Shown here one piece after another: positions 6,822 through 18,423 of a stretch of 64,000 bases of DNA; the first letter of the stretch is position 1, and each line of letters begins with the position of its first letter. The stretch covers positions 11,108-75,107 of the forward strand of contig NZ_JBFFMZ010000011.1 in assembly GCF_041563495.1 (NCBI RefSeq). Direction: 5' to 3'. Below the pieces are notes generated by a model, which ran no database searches, was not told the origin of the DNA, and worked only from the letters and a program-made list of their open reading frames with translations. The DNA comes from Sulfurimonas sp. (lineage in GTDB: Bacteria; Campylobacterota; Campylobacteria; Campylobacterales; Sulfurimonadaceae). The position numbers and the translations under genes were made by a program.

Positions 6822-7953
6822 AAAACTCTCAAACAACATAGATGTTTCGCATTATTTAAAAGAGCTGGGAGTAGATAGCGGCGGTATTGGCATCTTGGCT
6901 TCAAAAATGACTCATCATATTATCTACATAAGAGACCTGCATGTCGGTGCTGCAAATATTTTAAAGCAAGATGCACTTTCTATAGGAGCTGATTTGGCTG
7001 TACCTCGTGGAACGGTTGTCGCAGCAACTTCTCAAGTAGACTGCATTTTGTGTGCTACAACCAAACAGTTGAATCTTCTTAGTAAAAAAGAGCTTGCACA
7101 GCCGTTTGGACTTAAAGAGTTGGCAAAAAAGTTAGCACAGATAGCAAAAACCAAAAAACCAAAATCCACACAAATTATGGGTGTTTTAAATGCGAATGAA
7201 GATAGTTTTTTTTCCGGAAGCAGGTTTGTAGACAGAGATGCTATCTTTGCAATAGAGAAGATGATAGAAGATGGTGCTGACATAATAGACATAGGCGGAG
7301 TCTCTTCTGCTCCAAATGCAAAGTCTGTAGATGCCAAAGAAGAACTTGAACGAGTTAAGCCGATATTGGATGTTATCAAAGAACAAAAGCTTAATGAAAA
7401 CGTAAACTTCAGCATAGACAGCTATGAACCTACGGTTGTAGATTATGCTCTTAAGAGCGGTTTTAAGATAGTTAACGATATAACGGGATTAGGCAATGAT
7501 GAAATCTGTAAACTATGTGCGAGTTACGATGCAAAAGCGGTAATTATGCATATGCAGGGAACACCATCAACCATGCAAACAGCACCTAAATACAATAATC
7601 TTTTAAGTGATATATATTCGTTTTTTCAAGAGAGAATTGAAAAAGCTGAGAGTTTTGGTGTAAAAGACATAGTTTTAGATGTAGGTATAGGATTTGGAAA
7701 AACACTTGAGCATAATCTGAAACTGATTAAGCACTTAGAACATTTTTTGACTTTAAACAAAGAATTATTAGTAGGTGCTTCAAGAAAGTCAATGATAGAT
7801 AAAATATACCCTTCTCTGCCGCAAGACAGATTGGCAGGAACACTTGCCTTGCACCTAGAAGCTATGAAAAACGGTGCATCTATTATCCGTGCACATGATG
7901 TTATGGAACATCTGCAGGCCATAAAAATTCAAAAAGTCTTGAACGAAATATAA
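6811..7953 (+). CDS. folP: Dihydropteroate synthase with N-terminal extension
   Basis: 380 aa. The C-terminal ~260 aa form a pterin-binding DHPS domain (GVLNANEDSFFSG, DIIDIGGVSS, GASRKS, IRAHDV). About 115 extra N-terminal residues. Confidence 0.9.
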   Translation: MQIEKLSNNIDVSHYLKELGVDSGGIGILASKMTHHIIYIRDLHVGAANILKQDALSIGADLAVPRGTVVAATSQVDCILCATTKQLNLLSKKELAQPFGLKELAKKLAQIAKTKKPKSTQIMGVLNANEDSFFSGSRFVDRDAIFAIEKMIEDGADIIDIGGVSSAPNAKSVDAKEELERVKPILDVIKEQKLNENVNFSIDSYEPTVVDYALKSGFKIVNDITGLGNDEICKLCASYDAKAVIMHMQGTPSTMQTAPKYNNLLSDIYSFFQERIEKAESFGVKDIVLDVGIGFGKTLEHNLKLIKHLEHFLTLNKELLVGASRKSMIDKIYPSLPQDRLAGTLALHLEAMKNGASIIRAHDVMEHLQAIKIQKVLNEI

Positions 7954-7962
7954 AGGAGTTTT

Positions 7963-9297
7963 ATGAAGTTTCCAAATATATATGAAATCGCAACCACATC
8001 AGTAGTCTCAATAGATATAAACAGCACCTTTGCTCAGGCAATGGAAAAAATGCTTGCTAATAATCACAGAAATATTGTTATTGTGGATATAAATGACTTT
8101 TATATTTTAAGCATTATAGATATTTTAAATATTCAAGCCAACTCAATTGATTTTAATACACCGCTTCGTGATTTGCAACTTTTAAAAATACCCATAATAA
8201 AAAAAGATAAAAACATTTTAGAAACCTTAGAATATTTAAACAACTCGATAGAGTATATTTGCGTAGTAAATGATGACCACTCACTATATGGACTTGTCAC
8301 TCATACAGATATAACTACAAATATAGACCCTGATACATTAATGGAAAACTACCGCCTACAAGACTTTTTGAAACTTGGACGTAGAATGAAATGGGTAAGA
8401 AGAGATGAAAAAATATCTACCTTGATTAAAGATATGATTGATAACTCTTACGACAATGTAGTAGTCGTAGAGGATTTAAAGCCTATCGGTATTTTTACAA
8501 CAAAAGATATTATGAGATTAATGAAAAATAAAACCAATTTGGATGTAGAGATACAAGAACATATGACGACACCTGTTGAGTCAGTGCATAAAAATGCTTC
8601 AATAAAAGAAGCATTAGAGTTTATAAAAGAGAGACACTACAAAAGAGTTATAGTCGTGGATGATAATGGTTCGTTATCTGGAATTATTTCACAAAAAGAG
8701 TTGATATCTCTGACTTATTCTAAATGGTCGACTTTGATGAAAGAGTATCAAGCAGAGTTACATGAAATAAACTTAATGCTTCAAAATAAAAATATTGAGT
8801 ATGAAAATATTGCATCAACAGATTCTTTAACAGGACTATACAACAGACACAAATTTTCTCAACTCTATCTATCGGCATATACATCAATGGTTCAAAGACA
8901 TAATGATATGTCACTTATACTTTTAGACATAGATCACTTTAAAAAGGTAAATGATGATTTTGGACATAATGTAGGTGATAAAGCTCTTGTTCAAGTCTCA
9001 CATGCTCTTTTAAAAAACCTTAGAAATATTGATATAGTGTGTAGATGGGGCGGAGAAGAATTTTTGATATTATTACCGACAGTAGATTTGGAGCATGCTA
9101 TGCATATTGCTCAAAAAATAAGACAAGCAATAGAAATATTAGACATAGACATTATTGGTAACGCTACTGCAAGTTTTGGAATAGCTCAGGTTATTGAAGG
9201 TGAAGAGATGAAAGAGGTTATAAATAGAGCCGATAAGGCTCTATATCTGGCAAAAGATTGTGGAAGAAATTGTGTAAAGAGTGAGATAGATATTTAA
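7963..9297 (+). CDS. CBS-pair(x2)-GGDEF diguanylate cyclase
   Basis: 444 aa. N-terminal CBS-like repeats, a coiled linker, and a GGDEF domain with RWGGEEF and upstream DSLTGLYNR. Confidence 0.85.
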   Translation: MKFPNIYEIATTSVVSIDINSTFAQAMEKMLANNHRNIVIVDINDFYILSIIDILNIQANSIDFNTPLRDLQLLKIPIIKKDKNILETLEYLNNSIEYICVVNDDHSLYGLVTHTDITTNIDPDTLMENYRLQDFLKLGRRMKWVRRDEKISTLIKDMIDNSYDNVVVVEDLKPIGIFTTKDIMRLMKNKTNLDVEIQEHMTTPVESVHKNASIKEALEFIKERHYKRVIVVDDNGSLSGIISQKELISLTYSKWSTLMKEYQAELHEINLMLQNKNIEYENIASTDSLTGLYNRHKFSQLYLSAYTSMVQRHNDMSLILLDIDHFKKVNDDFGHNVGDKALVQVSHALLKNLRNIDIVCRWGGEEFLILLPTVDLEHAMHIAQKIRQAIEILDIDIIGNATASFGIAQVIEGEEMKEVINRADKALYLAKDCGRNCVKSEIDI

Positions 9298-11060: not shown

Positions 11061-11603
11061 CTAGTTTTTAATATATGCTTTTATTATTTCTTGTCTCTCT
11101 TGAGGTCTGTCCGCACCGCTTCTGCCAAATGTAGCTACATTGTTAAGCTTCATAATCGTTATCATCGAATCTTTTGTAGCTTCACCAAAAATAGTATGTC
11201 TGCCGTTAAGCCAGGGAGTTTTATTGGTAGTAATGAAAAATTGGCTTCCATTCGTGTGAGGTCCTCTGTTAGCCATTGCCAAAATGCCTGCTTTATCAAA
11301 AGTTTTGCCTTTAAACTCATCTTTAAAATCTTTGTTCCAGATGCTATTGCCGCCTCTGCCGCTCTCAGTCGGATCACCGCCTTGAATCATAAAGTCTTTT
11401 ATGATTCTGTGAAAAGCAACACCGTTATAGTAACCTTTTTTTACATGTGTAGTGAAGTTCTCCACTGCAAGCGGGGCTACTTCTGAAAAGAGTACAAGTT
11501 CTATATTTCCCTGCGTAGTCTCTAGTAGCACATGGGGATTTTTATCGTTAGCCTCTAAATTAACAGAGATAAATAATAAAAGTGTGAGTAGTGTTTTAAT
11601 CAT
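11061..11603 (-). CDS. Periplasmic cyclophilin-type peptidyl-prolyl cis-trans isomerase
   Basis: 180 aa. Signal peptide, then cyclophilin motifs FHRIIKDFMIQGGDP and GPHTNGSQFFIT. Confidence 0.9.
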   Translation of the reverse strand: MIKTLLTLLLFISVNLEANDKNPHVLLETTQGNIELVLFSEVAPLAVENFTTHVKKGYYNGVAFHRIIKDFMIQGGDPTESGRGGNSIWNKDFKDEFKGKTFDKAGILAMANRGPHTNGSQFFITTNKTPWLNGRHTIFGEATKDSMITIMKLNNVATFGRSGADRPQERQEIIKAYIKN

Positions 11604-13095
11604 ATTTTTCCTTTAATGTTTTTATATTTTTGGATTCTTCTTCATAAAGAACATAAGCTTTTTCTTCAGCCAGATTTATTGCATGTTCTATTTCGTTTAG
11701 TGAAGTGTCTGCAATGTCCATTAATATGACAAATTTTGAGTTCATCGAACTGATTTGTGAGTATGAACATAGCAGTAAATTGTCTAAATCTTGAGATAGT
11801 AAATTATTGGAACTATCTAATAAAACGGTCTTATCCTTAATAAAAAATTCTAAGTCATCATGTAATTGTCTTTTACTTATATTGTCACTTACGACTAAAA
11901 TATCTTGAGAAGAGTTTTCTTTGAGCAAATTAGAAATAATCTGCAGTGCTTTTGCATGCTGATTTGCTTGTTTGAAAATAATTTTTAATTTTTTTGGTTT
12001 AAAACTTTTTTCAAATCTGTAGGTCGCATCTTCATCGCCATACTCATTAACTAAAATGAGAGAAGATTTTTTTTGTATATGCTTTAAATAATCTATAAAC
12101 TCAATAGGGAGTAGGTTGGCATTATCACAAATAATTAGGTCAGCGATATCAAAACTTTTGCGCATAAGCTTTTCATCAATATTTAGAACAACTTCTAATG
12201 GTGGTTTTTTTAACTTGTTCAGGTGCCTGTTCACCAGCTCAATAGGGGTTATTATCTCAATAGAACTGAAATCAACTTCAATAATAGCGTATTCTATGAT
12301 ATCAAGTAATTTCTGTTTTAAAATATCGCAAGACAGAGTTGTAGGCTCAATAATAACAATATCTATTTCAGGATTTCGCAGAGTCTCTAAAATGGCTTTT
12401 AAAATAATTGAGTTGGTCTTACCCGAATGTGCACTACCGCTTAAAGTCTCAACTCCATCAGTAGTAGATTCAATAAACTCAATCTGTTCGTCAGTGGCTA
12501 GATTCATGCTCCCATCTTTTGAAAAGATAAGATACTGAACAAGTAAGTTCCCCATTATATGAACTTCATCAGGCATTCTTGATGTAGGCAGCGGCAAATT
12601 TTTTAGTTTTTGTAATATTTCTGATTCTAAAGAGTCATTAAACATAATTTTTTGATAAGGGAGTAACTCTTTTATAGAATCATTTAAATGTTGGTATTCA
12701 TCACTATTTAAATTTTCCATCAAAAGGTAGTTATATATTGGTACTCCGTCATTGTGCGTAAGCTCATTAAACTTTTGTTTTATAAATTCATGTGTTTTTT
12801 CAAAAGCAAGACTTTTTTCACTGGAGTCCTGATTTGTTGCTTTTGATATTGTTGAATTTTTTAAATCATCATATGACCACTCTTTATATTCAAATAAGCA
12901 GATTCCTCTGTTGGGATTTAAGATTAAAAGAGGAATAAAAAAGTTTTGAGTATGATGATATATAGTTATATTTTCGTAGATGCTAAAGGAGTTTTTTTTA
13001 CAAACTTCTTTTAATTTTTTGATTAATAATGAATCTGGAAGACTTAGAGTTTTTGGTTTTTTTCTGAAAATTGAGAAGAATGAAAATATATTCAT
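11596..13095 (-). CDS. NERD-like nuclease domain fused to P-loop (SF1-helicase-like) NTPase
   Basis: 499 aa. N-terminal NERD/PD-(D/E)xK-like segment (FIPLLILNPNRGICLFEYKEW). Walker A GSAHSGKTNS, Walker-B-like DLIICDNANLL, and a UvrD_C-like tail (KFVILMDIAD). Motif reading only. Confidence 0.55.
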   Translation of the reverse strand: MNIFSFFSIFRKKPKTLSLPDSLLIKKLKEVCKKNSFSIYENITIYHHTQNFFIPLLILNPNRGICLFEYKEWSYDDLKNSTISKATNQDSSEKSLAFEKTHEFIKQKFNELTHNDGVPIYNYLLMENLNSDEYQHLNDSIKELLPYQKIMFNDSLESEILQKLKNLPLPTSRMPDEVHIMGNLLVQYLIFSKDGSMNLATDEQIEFIESTTDGVETLSGSAHSGKTNSIILKAILETLRNPEIDIVIIEPTTLSCDILKQKLLDIIEYAIIEVDFSSIEIITPIELVNRHLNKLKKPPLEVVLNIDEKLMRKSFDIADLIICDNANLLPIEFIDYLKHIQKKSSLILVNEYGDEDATYRFEKSFKPKKLKIIFKQANQHAKALQIISNLLKENSSQDILVVSDNISKRQLHDDLEFFIKDKTVLLDSSNNLLSQDLDNLLLCSYSQISSMNSKFVILMDIADTSLNEIEHAINLAEEKAYVLYEEESKNIKTLKEKYD

Positions 13096-13102
13096 AAAAA
13101 GA

Positions 13103-13136
13103 AAAAATCCATTGCCTTAAAATGCAATGGATTTTT
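13103..13136 (-). terminator. Rho-independent terminator downstream of hup
   Basis: Perfect 13-bp stem AAAAATCCATTGC / GCAATGGATTTTT with an 8-nt loop. On the minus strand it is followed by a TTTTTTCTTTTT tract. Confidence 0.75.
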
Positions 13137-13140
13137 GAGA

Positions 13141-13425
13141 TTATTTGCCAGCAGCAACGCGGTCTTTAAGACCTTTACCAGCTTTAAATTTAGGAACCAT
13201 CTTGTCCTGAGTAGTATAAGTTTTACTTGTACCTGGAACTTTACCACTTTTGCCTTTTTGAAGGTTTGCAGAAAAACTACCAAAACCAACTAAAGAAACA
13301 TCTTCTTTTTTTACTAGAGCTGCCGTTACAGCTTCTGTAAATGCTTTAATTGCAGCTTCTGCTTCAACTTTAGTTTTGTACTCACCACTTGCTTGTACTA
13401 ATTCAACGAATTGAGCTTTGTTCAT
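13141..13425 (-). CDS. hup: DNA-binding protein HU
   Basis: Start moved to MNKAQFVELV (ATG at 13425). Typical HU fold sequence (GFGSFS .. PKFKAGKGLKD). Confidence 0.9.
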   Translation of the reverse strand: MNKAQFVELVQASGEYKTKVEAEAAIKAFTEAVTAALVKKEDVSLVGFGSFSANLQKGKSGKVPGTSKTYTTQDKMVPKFKAGKGLKDRVAAGK

Positions 13426-13522
13426 ATATTTACCCTTAGATTCATAAAGATTTCCGAGATTATTCAGCATAAGCACCAGACAGCCTTGTGCTAAAATAAT
13501 TCAGCTACGGATACTTTATAAT

Positions 13523-13756
13523 TTATTTGCTTAAATTTTTCTTCTTTTTGATGAAAAGTGTGATAAATTGCGATAATTTTGACTCTTTAAGTCCTATTTT
13601 AGCCATTTTCAAGAACTTAGAAGTGTTTAAACTAATATTCTTAGACATTAGTAAAGATGAAAATTCTTTCATTTTTTCATATTTAGTATTGTCTGTGCTA
13701 ATAGATAAAAATATATCTTCTAAACCATCTCTTTCTTGTTTAGTCAGTGCGCTCAT
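13523..13756 (-). CDS. Small hypothetical protein with a Lys-rich C-terminus
   Basis: 77 aa. Only a 3-nt gap from the upstream HTH gene. No recognisable family. Confidence 0.45.
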   Translation of the reverse strand: MSALTKQERDGLEDIFLSISTDNTKYEKMKEFSSLLMSKNISLNTSKFLKMAKIGLKESKLSQFITLFIKKKKNLSK

Positions 13757-13759
13757 TTA

Positions 13760-14002
13760 CTATACCTCTTCAAGTCTGTTGATTTTTCTTACAGCTCTAA
13801 TAATCTCATCATCATCTAATTTACCCAACATTTTCATTACCACAGAAGCAGCTTGAGGTTTAGCTCTAGCTAGTTTCCAGTCCTGATATGTACGCATAGA
13901 GATCCCAAGAGAATTAGCCATATCTTTAAGGGATATTTTTTTTCCATTGTTTTGAGACTCTAACGAGTTATGAAGAATATTAAACAGATCATCAATTTGC
14001 AT
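13760..14002 (-). CDS. XRE/Cro-type helix-turn-helix protein (antitoxin-like)
   Basis: 80 aa. ISLKDMANSLGISMRTYQDWKLARAKPQAASVVMKML resembles the HTH of HigA/MqsA/NadS-like small regulators. Confidence 0.6.
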   Translation of the reverse strand: MQIDDLFNILHNSLESQNNGKKISLKDMANSLGISMRTYQDWKLARAKPQAASVVMKMLGKLDDDEIIRAVRKINRLEEV

Positions 14003-14224
14003 AAGGAGAAGTATACGGATTTAATACTTAAATATACATTTAATATTAGAAATTAAGATATTTATATACTTAATAGCACCAATTAGTTTGTTTTATATAT
14101 TTAAAATATACTTTTTAGATATAATTATTTTATATTAAATACGGAATACCGTGTATTAAATATATAAAAATATCACTAAAAATAAGAAGTTGAAAAAAAA
14201 TTATTTAATATTTAATTTTTACGA

Positions 14225-15898
14225 TTAGAGAGAGATTGATTTATTTACAGGTAGCAGAGTTATTTTATCTTCAGATATTTTTAGGTGGAATGGCTCATAG
14301 CTTTGTGCATCTGTCTTGTAAATGATTTCATTATCATTATCAAGTGTGAATACTATGTTGTTTAAACCTTTGAGCGGTTTTTCTATGCTTATTGTTGCTC
14401 TAAAAACAGAACTCTTGATGTCATCTACTAGATTTTTTAATTTTTTTAGCTCATTTTTTATATTTTCTACTTCGGATTTATTGTGTCTCTGTGCTTCTTC
14501 AAGAGAAAATTTTAAATCTTCCATATCTTCTTTTATAAAATCTATTTTAGAGTTCAAAACAGGGATATCTTTATAGTTGATTTTAAAGAGATTATCTTCA
14601 CCGCTTACAAGCCTTATGCTAATAGATTCACTGGCGTAAACTTTCAGGTTGCTCTTTACATGTCCGATTTTTGCATTTTGAGCATATACAACTCCGCCAA
14701 GACAAGCTTCAATTTCTACATTTGTAGCGTGAACGGTACCACCTTCAAGAAGTGCTATTTTTGCATTGTGGCATCTGAGTGTACCTTTGTGTCTGTTTAT
14801 TTTTGCTATTCTTGCAAATTGTGCAGAATCTTGATGTGTCGCTCCATCTATTTGCATGTTTACAGCTTCTAAGATGCTGTTTGCACCAATATGACCGTTG
14901 ACATGTATTGTCTCACTCTTTAACTCAACTCCTTCACCGATACTGTCTTTAGTGGTATCATTTTGAGAGATGTGCACTTCTATATTGTTGTTTTGTTCTT
15001 TTGCCAAAGAGTCTTCTACTCTCGATATCTTGGCTACTTTTAGTTTATTGTTGACACTGAGTTTAGTTTTACTAAAGTTGACAAAGCCCTTGACTTTACT
15101 TTTGTAGAGTTTTTTGTCATCATTCTCTTCTATATAGATGCTGTCTGTATCTATTTGTGTTTGAAGATCATCAGCATTATGAGCATAGTCTTTGTCTAAT
15201 TGCTTTCCATGAGAGTTAAAGCCGCTTTTTCCGTAAACAGGTTTTTTATACTCTACTAAAATTTCATCTTTTTCAACTTCCGTAATCTGATGCTTATGTT
15301 GAGACTCTTTGTGTTTAAACCATAGTATTAATTTTCCGGCTCTGGTTATTTTGGGTTCTATTCCTTCAAAAAGTGGAATTCTAATCTTTTTTTTGAACTT
15401 GCCTTCATAGAGATGTTTTGTAAAAGCTTTTAGGCTCTTGATCATTTTTTCATCAAATAAGTCTATTAGAATCCCATTTTTGGCTTTTATCTTATTTACC
15501 TCCCGAAGTAGAAGTTTGTATGTTTCTATCGGCTTATGTGTTTTGTAAAGTATGTGTGAATCAGGATGTAATATCAATTTTGGATTACATTCAAATTCAT
15601 CCATTTCCAAGGAGTAGTTGAGTTTAATCTCTACATTTACAGGCTTAACCGCCAATATAGTGTATATTTGTTGAAATTCTACATGTCTGTTTATAATATC
15701 GTTTTCATTTTTATAATGTTCATTGAGTTTTTCATTAAACTGTATAAATTCATCGTCTGAATTTGTTTTTACGTAAGTCACTGTATTTAAAATAGTGAAG
15801 TCACACTCATTTAAAGGTGTAAAGTTGTCAGATGCAAAGTTAATCATTGCATTTTTAATATTTTTAGTTTTAATGGTTGTGTCTTGAATTTCAGCCAC
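14225..15898 (-). CDS. DUF342 (FapA-like) protein
   Basis: 557 aa. Conserved glycine-rich loop KPVYGKSGFNSHGKQL, then degenerate beta-helix-like repeats (IHVNGHIGANSILEAVNMQIDG...VHATNVEIEACLGGVVYAQNAKIGHV) and a C-terminal coiled coil. This is the usual DUF342 layout. Confidence 0.7.
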   Translation of the reverse strand: MAEIQDTTIKTKNIKNAMINFASDNFTPLNECDFTILNTVTYVKTNSDDEFIQFNEKLNEHYKNENDIINRHVEFQQIYTILAVKPVNVEIKLNYSLEMDEFECNPKLILHPDSHILYKTHKPIETYKLLLREVNKIKAKNGILIDLFDEKMIKSLKAFTKHLYEGKFKKKIRIPLFEGIEPKITRAGKLILWFKHKESQHKHQITEVEKDEILVEYKKPVYGKSGFNSHGKQLDKDYAHNADDLQTQIDTDSIYIEENDDKKLYKSKVKGFVNFSKTKLSVNNKLKVAKISRVEDSLAKEQNNNIEVHISQNDTTKDSIGEGVELKSETIHVNGHIGANSILEAVNMQIDGATHQDSAQFARIAKINRHKGTLRCHNAKIALLEGGTVHATNVEIEACLGGVVYAQNAKIGHVKSNLKVYASESISIRLVSGEDNLFKINYKDIPVLNSKIDFIKEDMEDLKFSLEEAQRHNKSEVENIKNELKKLKNLVDDIKSSVFRATISIEKPLKGLNNIVFTLDNDNEIIYKTDAQSYEPFHLKISEDKITLLPVNKSISL

Positions 15899-15916
15899 TA
15901 TAATAAGCCTCTTTAA

Positions 15917-16570
15917 TTAATATGAAAGTAAGTCACTGTAATCATATTTTGAAAAATCTAAATATAATTTGCCGTCTTTGTGCAGGACTCTTATATCATT
16001 GTCATAAACAGATAAAAATCTTCTTTTAATAACTTTTCTTTGATATGATTTTAAATTCAATGTCTTAAGATAATCTTTTAGTTCTACTATTCCTGGTTCT
16101 GGAACATTTTTTTGTTTATCTTCTTCTATTGTTTCTACTTCGTGTATAGTCTGCCCTTGATGTTCTAGCATCATCTTTGTGTTTACAAGTTCCAGTATAT
16201 TTTTTAACTGCTCATCTTTTTTACTATAGAGTTGCTCAATTTTATCACGTTCATCACGGAGCATCTGCTCTTTATCACCTATTAGTTTATCTATTTTCAA
16301 CTCGAGCTGCATGATCTTTTCTTTGAGCTGTGTATTTTCTCTTTGGTATAAAGCTATGACAGTTGCAACTGTTGTCTTTGGTTTGAGTATTGCTTTTTTC
16401 TCAGTAACCGCTTCCTTTTTTATATCAGTGTCAATAGGATTCTCTTTTACCATTATGTATGTTATGGAATCTTCAATTATATAGTCTAGTTTTTTTGATT
16501 TTAGTTTTGAGCTGATCATCTCTTTTGACATTTTAAACTGTTTTGAGTATTCGTCTATTGTTAGTCTCAT
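15917..16570 (-). CDS. Excisionase/MerR-like HTH plus coiled-coil protein
   Basis: 217 aa. N-terminus LTIDEYSKQFKMSKEMISSKLKSKKLDYIIEDSITYI resembles an excisionase-type HTH. Central heptad-rich segment (QLKEKIMQLELKIDKLIGDKEQMLRDERDKIEQL). 1-nt gap from the upstream cyclase-like ORF. Confidence 0.5.
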   Translation of the reverse strand: MRLTIDEYSKQFKMSKEMISSKLKSKKLDYIIEDSITYIMVKENPIDTDIKKEAVTEKKAILKPKTTVATVIALYQRENTQLKEKIMQLELKIDKLIGDKEQMLRDERDKIEQLYSKKDEQLKNILELVNTKMMLEHQGQTIHEVETIEEDKQKNVPEPGIVELKDYLKTLNLKSYQRKVIKRRFLSVYDNDIRVLHKDGKLYLDFSKYDYSDLLSY

Positions 16571-16571
16571 A

Positions 16572-17258
16572 TTATGTCCTTATAAGCATAGAATTAAAAT
16601 TTGTATTTGGCGGGTTTATTATACCAGCCTTTCGTAGCCACACAAGGCGACCTTCTTTTTTATTACCGTGTTTATCTTCAAAAATATAGGGTGATGAATA
16701 TTTAAACTCTCTTTCTATTAAAAGTGAATTAAAGTTTTTGTATCTATCTAAAAAAACTTTTAAACTTTCATATGCGGTATCTGAAACCATTATTGTAGAT
16801 ATTGTATAATCTTTTATCTCCAAATATCTGGCACAATCATTTAAACCGTCCCCTATGTAGTTTTTATGTCCCAATATATCTATAAACTCATATATTTTGC
16901 CTGTATGAACAGCAATCCTAATACCTTGAAAATATGAATATTTTTTAGAAATATATTCTGACATATAGTTAAAACTAAGTCCTAAAATGGTTCCGTAACC
17001 TTTTAGCTTAGGGTTTAATATGCAGTAAAAACCGTCACCTGTCGAGATATATCCTAGTATCAAACTACTCAAGGGCATCTTTGAGCTTTCTAACATCTTC
17101 TCTATCATGTTTGTATATGTCTTAGTCAAGAAGTTGATAATCTCCAATTGATATTTTACTTCAAGTTTAGAAAAATTGATGATATCAATGAGGACAATAT
17201 CAGTTGTCCACTCACTATTTTTTTTTCTAGTCATGCAAACTCTATGTTTTTTAACCAT
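16572..17258 (-). CDS. Minimal class III nucleotidyl (adenylyl/guanylyl-type) cyclase-like protein
   Basis: 228 aa (alternative start M9 at 17234). Ordered motifs IVLIDIINFS (metal Asp 1), STGDGFYCIL (metal Asp 2), IRIAVHTGKIY and GDGLNDCARYLE (Asn..Arg pair). No sensor or TM domain. Confidence 0.55.
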   Translation of the reverse strand: MVKKHRVCMTRKKNSEWTTDIVLIDIINFSKLEVKYQLEIINFLTKTYTNMIEKMLESSKMPLSSLILGYISTGDGFYCILNPKLKGYGTILGLSFNYMSEYISKKYSYFQGIRIAVHTGKIYEFIDILGHKNYIGDGLNDCARYLEIKDYTISTIMVSDTAYESLKVFLDRYKNFNSLLIEREFKYSSPYIFEDKHGNKKEGRLVWLRKAGIINPPNTNFNSMLIRT

Positions 17259-17343
17259 TTTAACATAAAAAGTTTATAAAAAAGTTATTTCAAATAAAGC
17301 TTGTAATATAATCACGAATATAATAAAAAATATAGGAAGAGTA

Positions 17344-18423
17344 ATGAGCAAAGGCATATTAGATATTGTAAAACCGGGTGTCCTTTTTGGAGATGATGTA
17401 CAAAAAGTTTACAACATGGCAAAGGAGGTTGGTTTTGCTATTCCTGCAGTTAATGTTGTATCAACTGATTCTATAAATGCAGTGTTGGAAGCTGCAGCAA
17501 AAGTGAAATCTCCTGTAATTATTCAGTTTAGTAATGGCGGAGCTTCATATTATGCAGGTAAAGGTTTAAGTAACGAGAATGAAAAAGCTGCAATTATCGG
17601 TGCAGTATCCGGTGCTAAACATGTTCACATGATGGCAGAGGCTTACGGGGTTGCTGTAATACTTCACACAGACCACGCGGCTAAAAAACTACTTCCTTGG
17701 ATAGATGCGCTTTTAGAAGCAGGTGAGAAGCATTTTGCTCACACGGGTAAAGCACTTTATTCTTCACATATGTTAGACCTTTCAGAAGAACCGTTGGAAG
17801 AAAATATCTCAATATGTAAAGCATATTTAGAGCGCATGAGTAAAATAGGCATGAGCATAGAGATAGAACTCGGGGTAACAGGCGGAGAAGAAGACGGTGT
17901 TGACAATACTAACATCGATAATGCTCTTTTATATACTCAGCCAGAAGAAGTCGCTTATGCATATGAGGAGTTAAGTAAAGTATCTCCAGATTTTACAATC
18001 GCTGCTTCATTTGGAAATGTACATGGCGTTTATAAGCCGGGTAATGTAATGCTTACACCTAAAATATTGGATAATTCTCAAAAATATATTCAAGAAAAAT
18101 TCAATACAGAAGCTAAGCCTGTAAACTTCGTATTTCACGGTGGTTCTGGTTCACTTCCAAGTGAAATAAGTGAAGCAATCAGTTATGGTGTTATTAAAAT
18201 GAATATAGATACTGATACTCAGTGGGCTACCTGGGTCGGGACAAAAGAATATATTGAAAAATACAATGCTTACCTACAAGGTCAAATCGGTAACCCTGAA
18301 GGTGAGGATAAACCAAATAAGAAATATTATGACCCTAGAAAGTGGTTAAGAGCAGGACAAGAGACTCTGGTTGCTCGTGTAGAGGAAGCCTTCGCTGACT
18401 TAAACGCACTAAACAGAAACTAA
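17344..18423 (+). CDS. fba: Class II fructose-bisphosphate aldolase
   Basis: 359 aa. Full-length match in pattern to FbaA-type class II aldolases (AVNVVSTDS.., HTDHAAKK, FVFHGGSGS). Confidence 0.95.
   Translation: MSKGILDIVKPGVLFGDDVQKVYNMAKEVGFAIPAVNVVSTDSINAVLEAAAKVKSPVIIQFSNGGASYYAGKGLSNENEKAAIIGAVSGAKHVHMMAEAYGVAVILHTDHAAKKLLPWIDALLEAGEKHFAHTGKALYSSHMLDLSEEPLEENISICKAYLERMSKIGMSIEIELGVTGGEEDGVDNTNIDNALLYTQPEEVAYAYEELSKVSPDFTIAASFGNVHGVYKPGNVMLTPKILDNSQKYIQEKFNTEAKPVNFVFHGGSGSLPSEISEAISYGVIKMNIDTDTQWATWVGTKEYIEKYNAYLQGQIGNPEGEDKPNKKYYDPRKWLRAGQETLVARVEEAFADLNALNRN

Follow-up and report, generated by a model that had tools for sequence, protein, structure and literature searches.

When a nucleotidyl cyclase gene that encodes no sensor domain is followed at once by the genes of a helix-turn-helix protein and of a large FapA-like protein, the question arises whether the three products form a single signalling pathway. 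Such a locus lies in a stretch of 64,000 nucleotides, referred to here as the window, taken from contig NZ_JBFFMZ010000011.1 of a Sulfurimonas sp. An earlier note, made from the sequence alone, had read the three genes as signal generator, adaptor and effector, serving either protein localisation or a form of defence. The comparison of related loci favors a narrower answer: the functional unit would be the cyclase and the second protein, the DUF342 protein being an accessory, a reading that holds about half of our confidence. This support is comparative, i.e. adjacency kept through rearrangements and parallel partners in relatives, and not physical, hence the restrained estimate. The three open reading frames (ORFs) are the following, with lengths in amino acids (aa):

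16572-17258, minus strand: ORF1, stand-alone class III nucleotidyl cyclase homology domain by prediction, 228 aa, ATG start as listed
15917-16570, minus strand: ORF2, putative partner protein with winged helix-turn-helix (wHTH) and coiled coil, 217 aa, ATG start
14225-15898, minus strand: ORF3, FapA/DUF342-family protein, 557 aa, GTG start

The layout is as the earlier note had described it, with three minus-strand genes divergent from fba and separated by gaps of 1 and 18 nucleotides (nt). At the first junction, the TAA stop of ORF1 is followed by one base and the ATG of ORF2, and an AAGGA motif sits within the end of ORF1. At the second, a TAA stop is followed by 18 nt including AAGAGG and then by GTG. 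A scan of positions 13000-17500 found no terminator-like site between ORF1, ORF2 and ORF3; the only clear terminator of that region lies at 13103-13136, 3' of the HU gene. The GC content of the operon (0.23-0.36) is the same as that of its flanks, the composition being uniform, and each of the three proteins is 100% identical to database entries from one Sulfurimonas sp. NCBI contig. We infer that the three genes are co-transcribed. The start of ORF1 probably has to be moved. Homologues of ORF1 are mostly 215-220 aa long and start at a methionine aligned with Met9 of ORF1, some gene calls being longer, and the listed ATG (17258) falls within an extended -10-like element (17257-17265). Since the homologues begin there and the upstream ATG is inside this conserved element, the true start would probably be Met9 (ATG at 17234), giving a predicted coding sequence of 220 aa at 16572-17234.

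Conservation of the operon in Sulfurimonadaceae

Related loci were collected from species-representative genomes (80 loci, all of them Sulfurimonadaceae and corresponding to the top 80 of 167 relatives), from metagenomes (80 loci) and by two direct look-ups. Nine window proteins were located in them by tblastn. The Sulfurimonadaceae set of 141 non-redundant loci is made up of those in which cyclase and ORF1 share at least 55% identity. Its recurrence in these 141 loci puts the arrangement far beyond chance, and the layout of ORF1, ORF2 and ORF3 as an operon is confirmed as real and conserved. Every one of them (141/141) has an ORF2 homologue behind the cyclase, in the same orientation, at a median distance of 12 nt (range -20 to 56, in 140 non-redundant loci). 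The pair is kept in a deep clade that has no fba upstream, and it is also kept in three loci where the downstream genes are replaced (L132, L044 and L047). Measured against the window proteins, the cyclase has a median identity of 66%, ORF2 of 61% and DUF342 of 52%, indicating that the cyclase is under stronger constraint than its two companions; the corresponding values for fba and HU are 84% and 91%.

The third gene has a different history. Of the 70 species-level genomes that are informative, 43 have a full-length DUF342, 24 have none and 3 keep a remnant, so that the gene is absent or decayed in 27/70, i.e. about 40%, whereas the cyclase and ORF2 are never separate. Where DUF342 is present, 1-17 nt separate it from ORF2 (median 7 nt, n=35). 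In the complete genome of S. aquatica it is cleanly absent from the locus. The remnants stand at the expected position (9317-9421 in L010, 6% of the length; 3363-4085 in L022, 43%; 9367-10056 in L056, 41%) and are cases of gene decay in progress. On a neighbour-joining tree of cyclase plus ORF2, DUF342 is reconstructed as 'present' at the root and no fewer than 8 state changes are required, implying that the gene was lost independently at least 8 times. The obligate chain from generator through adaptor to DUF342 effector that the earlier note had proposed finds no support in this pattern.

Various sequences are found next to ORF2 in the collected loci. In L132 (9319-13267), a GNAT acetyltransferase gene comes directly after the stop codon of ORF2, with pta and ackA behind it. 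The DUF342 slot is taken by a 642-aa membrane protein in L044 (9482-11410) and L047. In the deep-clade loci L031, L039 and L065, about 600 base pairs (bp) lie between ORF2 and DUF342, corresponding in L031 (9373-9969) to a 198-aa ORF.

The same comparison could be read as synteny without function, three unrelated genes being adjacent only through the little-rearranged chromosome of Sulfurimonadaceae. At least 8 neighbouring genes are collinear across the family, the DUF342 gene is cleanly deleted in some loci, and outside the family none of ORF1, ORF2 and ORF3 is linked to the others. Because the whole block from fba to the PPIase gene is collinear in the family, this explanation stays a serious rival. 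It accounts poorly, however, for the adjacency of cyclase and ORF2, which survives every rearrangement seen on either side of the pair, and for gaps that are consistently tiny or overlapping. Moreover, two independent relatives couple a cyclase domain to a helical partner, by an overlapping gene in one case and by fusion in the other. Pure synteny is accordingly judged somewhat unlikely.

The cyclase domain and its relatives

The assignment of ORF1 to the cyclases needed a structure model and remote representatives because direct searches failed. ORF1 matched nothing in Pfam, NCBIfam or PADLOC (with Pfam and PADLOC searched at E-values up to 1), nor was any match obtained in a phmmer search of PDB sequences. 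A profile built from close homologues matched ribosomal protein S17 only among PDB entries and this match is spurious. The AlphaFold2 model of ORF1, built with 30 homologues, has a predicted local distance difference test (pLDDT) score of 87.7 and a predicted template modelling (pTM) score of 0.86. Its top 50 Foldseek matches in the PDB are all catalytic domains of adenylyl, guanylyl or uridylyl cyclases (E 4e-9 to 6e-7, probability 1.0). They include RhGC, sGC, CyaC, Cya2, Ma1120, Rv1900c and the C1/C2 domains of adenylyl cyclase (AC), with the uridylate cyclase 8jsz at rank 38. An exhaustive profile search of 1.84 billion representatives gave 211 relatives of ORF1, 102 of which were aligned with it (alignment A2, 103 sequences). 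PF00211 is matched by 21 of the 103 aligned sequences (best E 2.5e-12), and a profile including the remote relatives retrieved cyclases from the PDB at E 3.6e-8. The homology of ORF1 to PF00211 is transitive, as it is the A2 relatives and not ORF1 itself that match.

The residues expected of an active enzyme can be located by alignment. D25 (in LIDIINFS) and D75 (in STGDG) align to the metal-binding aspartates in ADIVGFT and TLGD of AC9 C1, and N140 and R144 (in GLNDCAR) to the transition-state Asn and Arg in TVNTASR of RhGC. K196, in a DKH motif, would from its motif position be the phosphate-binding lysine of KGKG. All five residues are invariant in 30 close relatives and conserved to at least 90% in 52-103 close and remote relatives. 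Model and alignment together identify ORF1 as a class III cyclase-fold protein without sensor domain, as the earlier note had surmised, and it looks catalytically competent.

The pocket for the base is less conventional. The base-selecting Lys/Glu position is occupied by Ile71/Ser72, before TGD (in the family, by Ile/Val/Leu and Ser/Pro), and the position equivalent to C566 of RhGC by a nearly invariant Asn133. The family also has a one-residue deletion before the second metal-binding Asp (xTGDG instead of KTIGD). The canonical pair, which is Lys with Asp/Thr for ATP and Glu with Cys/Ser for GTP, is not found in ORF1. Since the base-selecting pair is non-canonical (Ile/Ser plus Asn), the product of ORF1 is not predictable. 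The pocket residues are also unlike those reported for pyrimidine cyclases (PMC11224242).

ORF1 is best compared with minimal class III cyclases such as Ma1120 of Mycobacterium avium and the cores of CyaC, Cya2 and RhGC. It shares with them the palm fold (target TM score about 0.6-0.7 in the Foldseek matches above), the conserved metal-binding Asp pair, Asn/Arg and C-terminal Lys, and the absence of any sensor or regulatory domain. Like homodimeric enzymes, it carries all the catalytic residues in one chain. It differs from them in being too divergent for a direct match to PF00211 or to a PDB cyclase, in its base pair and one-residue deletion, in a family-specific invariant Gln37 and DKH motif, and in the constant pairing of its gene with that of a coiled-coil partner.

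One alternative is that ORF1 is an inactive pseudo-enzyme with a cyclase fold, or a nucleotide-binding regulator, with a structural role alongside ORF2. The loss of the canonical purine-selecting Lys/Glu at Ile71/Ser72 and the divergence of the family from PF00211 would fit such a loss of function. The invariance of all the chemistry residues in close relatives and their conservation in remote ones would nevertheless be unexpected for a pseudo-enzyme, and this alternative appears very improbable.

The unusual pocket also bears on the defence-like module suggested by the earlier note, in which an infection-triggered cyclic nucleotide monophosphate (cNMP) would activate an unconventional effector, DUF342 or ORF2, as in a Pycsar- or Pucsar-like anti-phage system. 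The PycC cyclases of Pycsar are likewise small, class III-type and devoid of sensor domains, and PycC and PucC have non-canonical base pockets (PMC11224242). They, too, belong to two- or three-gene operons. The base-selecting residues of ORF1 are non-canonical as well, the uridylate cyclase 8jsz is among its structural matches, and a NERD-type ORF with a weak PADLOC match lies about 1 kb downstream of ORF3. The resemblance stops there. The PycC specificity residues, F100/R142/Q144 or Y50/D94/R97, have no evident counterpart in ORF1. None of ORF1, ORF2 and ORF3 is matched by the PADLOC library of defence-protein models, which presumably includes the Pycsar cyclase. Neither ORF2, ORF3 nor their neighbours encode an effector domain of the cyclic nucleotide-binding (CNBD), TIR or transmembrane (TM) type, in contrast with the CNBD-TM or CNBD-TIR effectors of Pycsar and Pucsar. 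No relative of the cyclase was found in viral contigs and the composition of the locus is uniform. Finally, the operon occupies a core-genome position between fba and hup across the family, at 55-88% identity, a strictly vertical, housekeeping pattern unlike that of a patchy or mobile defence island. A role in defence is thus extremely improbable.

Sister clades were supplied by a metagenome scan seeded with outgroup sequences. In one of them the cyclases are 44-53% identical and have neither ORF2 nor DUF342 next to them. Instead, in 7/7 loci (L130, at 6848-8609, L109, L129, L133, L143, L147 and L152) a gene for a DUF6781 helical protein of 368 aa runs with its 3' end into the start of the cyclase gene. 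Downstream, genes for a Tll0287-type histidine kinase and a DUF3369 response regulator are found in three loci, and the kinase alone on a fourth, which is truncated by the contig end. The pair of DUF6781 and cyclase is flanked by moaC/DUF493. In more remote relatives the cyclase either stands alone (L083-L086) or is fused to a C-terminal coiled coil of 120-150 aa (P0368, P0374 and P0377). A Rosetta-stone link, in which the coil of P0374 would correspond to ORF2, was rejected on account of the dissimilar sequences, leaving an architectural parallel only. The three-gene combination is confined to Sulfurimonadaceae, and a minimal cyclase with a helical partner recurs more widely. The co-occurrence of the three genes outside this genome, on which the earlier note had made its reading depend, is found within Sulfurimonadaceae and breaks down beyond it, where the nearest cyclase relatives adjoin neither ORF2 nor DUF342.

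The predicted winged helix-turn-helix and FapA-like companions

The AlphaFold2 model of ORF2 (pLDDT 79, above 90 in the helix) comprises a predicted wHTH domain (residues 1-41), a disordered linker, a 74-residue helix or coiled coil (68-141), a second linker and a wHTH-like domain (161-215). A beta-alpha-alpha-beta-beta topology occurs twice in the model, at residues 2-40 and 161-205. At the level of single domains, Foldseek aligned ORF2 with BldC and with the Xis proteins of Tn916 and of mycobacteriophage Pukovnik (root-mean-square deviation 1.3-2.5 Å, probability 0.8-0.94, E about 1). PF12728 is matched by one of 30 members of the ORF2 family (E 0.025). The relationship to Xis/MerR-like wHTH domains is suggestive, and ORF2 would probably bind DNA by means of its two wHTH domains. 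The earlier note had recognized the excisionase/MerR-like HTH and the long coiled coil, both in agreement with the model and its domain matches, and had overlooked the second, C-terminal wHTH-like domain.

RacA, KfrA and BldC are DNA organisers that combine a MerR/Xis-type wHTH with a coiled coil and they provide an architectural analogy to ORF2. The likeness lies in the predicted N-terminal Xis/MerR-like wHTH followed by a long dimerising helix, with BldC and Xis as best domain matches. ORF2 differs from these organisers by the lack of a significant sequence or whole-chain structural match and by its extra C-terminal wHTH-like domain.

Two close homologues of ORF2 are labelled DUF3972 in UniRef. 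Full-length ORF2 gave no match to the corresponding model, PF13118, at E-values up to 1. Its first 45 residues taken separately give 14.8 bits, and the highest-scoring homologue reaches 15.8 bits, for a cutoff of 26.2 bits and over positions 1-79 only of the 125 in the profile. ORF2 resembles the DUF3972 proteins of Helicobacter and Campylobacter in size (about 200-220 aa), in its restriction to Campylobacterota and in a weak similarity of the N-terminal 40-80 residues or so (E 0.02-0.1), but its scores, at most 15.8 versus 26.2 bits, are well below the gathering threshold. The gene context differs too: in other epsilonproteobacteria, DUF3972-annotated genes are reported to come after cheZ and then a U32 peptidase gene, with no cyclase (PMC12887009). 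The identification of ORF2 as a DUF3972 protein was rejected, the match being sub-threshold and confined to the N-terminus, and for the same reasons the synteny with cheZ was set aside as a weak functional lead.

ORF3 was matched by PF20250 (FapA_N) over residues 120-277, with an E-value of 6.6e-9 and 35.8 bits for a cutoff of 27, and all 26 of its homologues match the same family. The glycine loop YGKSGFNSHGKQL spans residues 222-234, with glycines that vary hardly or not at all across the 26 homologues. Along the protein, an N-terminal extension precedes the FapA_N domain (120-277), residues from about 296 to 440 may form a degenerate beta-solenoid, and a coiled coil (about 443-500) lies towards the C-terminus, coiled-coil-type matches being found at 443-503. 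PF03961, the FapA beta-solenoid, gave no Pfam match in any of 26 family members; residues 296-440 read as about 8 degenerate repeats of 15-19 residues, with a weak lag-17 signal about 2.4 standard deviations above the mean. The DUF342/FapA-like character and the coiled coil claimed in the earlier note are thereby upheld; its beta-helix is not confirmed, PF03961 being unmatched and the periodicity weak. ORF3 resembles FapA/DUF342 proteins such as the Vibrio flagellar assembly protein A and Borrelia BB0267 in its FapA_N domain with a glycine-rich loop and in its plan of N-domain, repetitive middle and coiled coil. It differs in the missing PF03961 match, in its 119-residue N-terminal extension and in the situation of its gene, which lies away from flagellar genes, behind those of a cyclase and a wHTH protein, and is lost in many relatives.

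The model of the earlier note would be an integrated pathway, in which the cyclase signal would pass through ORF2 to DUF342 as effector and control polar or flagellar positioning. Several observations are in its favor. The genes are co-directional where DUF342 is present, with the short gaps given above and no terminator between ORF2 and DUF342, and the tree points to an ancestral DUF342 at this position. FapA genes are embedded elsewhere in flagellar superoperons (PMC11607428) and the DUF3972-annotated genes of other epsilonproteobacteria lie downstream of cheZ (PMC12887009). Against these observations, about 40% of informative loci lack DUF342 or hold a decayed copy, their cyclase and ORF2 being intact and conserved, and the DUF342 slot is occupied by unrelated genes in some genomes. 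The match of ORF2 to DUF3972 is sub-threshold. The locus stands between fba and hup, outside any flagellar cluster and with no flagellar gene within about 8 kb on either side, and its promoter region shows a sigma-70-type element with no sigma-28 or sigma-54 motif seen. S. hongkongensis, listed as non-motile (PMC12029903), keeps a full-length DUF342, a single counter-example that also undermines the use of DUF342 presence as a proxy for motility. Overall, the three-part pathway is distinctly unlikely.

Promoter region and proposed mode of action

The surroundings of the operon comprise the following features:

17344-18423, plus strand: fba, divergent from ORF1 across 85 bp
17235-17343: divergent fba/cyclase promoter region, with TATAAT, near-palindrome and extended -10-like element; predicted function
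14003-14224, minus strand: AT-rich spacer of 222 bp between ORF3 and the next conserved gene pair, hth80/p77; weak hairpin only
13103-13136: terminator-like hairpin between the HU gene (hup) and the NERD-like ORF

The putative -10 element of fba is the TATAAT at 17307-12 on the plus strand. The cyclase operon has an extended -10-like element, TGTTAAAAT, at 17257-17265 on the minus strand, and in the aligned intergenic regions 91 of the 107 non-redundant loci have TGnTAnAAT ahead of the cyclase gene. The promoter proposal rests on this conservation across loci, since a scan of the window region for promoter consensus gave matches no commoner than in shuffled sequence. No sigma-28 or sigma-54 motif was seen by eye in the fba/cyclase promoter region and we infer a sigma-70-type promoter for the cyclase operon from the motif. 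Between the two divergent -10 elements lies a near-palindrome of about 22 bp (17281-17302). Its family consensus is AAAGTTCATTT.AAAAGAACTTT (also written AAAGTTCATTTAAAAGAACTTT), with most positions conserved at 70% or more in the anchored consensus, and the window copy, AAGCTTTATTTGAAATAACTTT, is degenerate. The window holds no second copy of the pattern beyond one match with 3 mismatches, which chance alone could give. The palindrome is a candidate operator for a dimeric regulator, ORF2 and hth80 being the obvious suspects. One could go further and imagine ORF1 as a housekeeping, non-defence synthase of an unusual cNMP, e.g. a cyclic pyrimidine, read by ORF2 as a member of a new class of CNBD-less receptors and transcription factors that would regulate its own operon through the palindrome, a scenario that seems rather improbable.

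On the other side of the operon, the hairpin of the 14003-14224 spacer is weak (-12.5 kcal/mol, z -1.8) and the terminator scan found no terminator-like site in that spacer. A spacer of 124-425 bp, mostly 200-330 bp, is found upstream of hth80 in nearly all loci without DUF342, for 222 bp in the window. The gene hth80 (13760-14002, minus strand) codes for an 80-aa Xre-like HTH protein and p77 (13523-13756, minus strand) for a 77-aa protein. The identity of hth80, with a median of 86% and up to 96%, is above that of the cyclase, ORF2 and DUF342, and its position is the same with or without DUF342. The hairpin at 13103-13136 has a perfect 13-bp stem and resembles a bidirectional terminator. An Rfam scan of 12900-17500 gave sub-threshold matches on this hup terminator only; they correspond to the small RNAs STnc240 and SpR14 and are regarded as spurious. 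The NERD-like ORF (11596-13095, minus strand, 499 aa) has two weak matches, to Pfam NERD (E 0.004) and to the PADLOC model 'C3a187 NERD+UvrD' (E 2.5e-5). It is syntenic in the family, diverges quickly (21-79% identity) and has no counterpart in some loci.

The explanation we favor, cyclase and coiled-coil partner as a functional pair, may be put together as follows. The operon would be a vertically inherited, housekeeping-type unit of Sulfurimonadaceae with ORF1 and ORF2 as its conserved core. ORF1 would be a minimal class III cyclase, most likely a homodimer, making a cyclic mononucleotide. ORF2, probably translationally coupled to ORF1 across the 1-nt gap, would be a dimeric wHTH-coiled-coil-wHTH protein. 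It would most likely partner the sensor-less cyclase as a regulator or scaffold setting its activity, dimerisation or location, and probably contact DNA through both wHTH domains. DUF342 would be a third cistron, present in the ancestor of the family, dispensable to the pair and repeatedly lost. Its product would be a co-transcribed accessory, probably a scaffold of polar or flagellar type like other FapA proteins, and not an obligate effector of the cyclase.

Several points weigh against the pair. The interaction of ORF1 with ORF2 is deduced from comparison only, and the fused coil of P0374 has no sequence similarity to ORF2. The HTH matches of ORF2 in structure searches are not statistically significant (E about 1). 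The non-canonical base-selecting pair raises the possibility that ORF1 departs from conventional cyclases. No cNMP receptor domain (CNBD or GAF) was found in ORF2, in ORF3 or within about 8 kb on either side of the locus in S. aquatica. Lastly, the fba/cyc-ORF2-(DUF342)-hth80-p77-HU-NERD-PPIase block is collinear within one family only and the adjacency could result from slow rearrangement.

The cyclase fold, the wHTH and FapA_N are already known. Three findings are new. A sizeable group of divergent, unannotated minimal class III cyclases forms a subfamily whose base pocket is non-canonical; in one bacterial family its members are obligately paired with a wHTH-coiled-coil-wHTH protein; and its relatives show parallel arrangements of partners. 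The locus would be a lineage-specific signalling pair rather than a new three-part system. For annotation, ORF1 should become a class III cyclase-domain protein starting at Met9, and DUF342 should not be assumed to be functionally linked to the cyclase. The usual understanding of class III cyclases builds on the sensor domains fused to them. In the present case, a well-conserved family of sensor-less cyclases, with hundreds of sequences annotated as 'hypothetical', is coupled to a helical or coiled-coil partner, either in trans (ORF2 in Sulfurimonadaceae, DUF6781 in the sister clade) or in cis (the fused coiled coil of other relatives). To our knowledge, cNMP signalling in sulfur-oxidising Campylobacterota has not been studied, and from the non-canonical pocket the nucleotide made in these abundant bacteria is not predictable. 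If the partner does control dimerisation or localisation, the pair would represent a distinct way to regulate a minimal cyclase.

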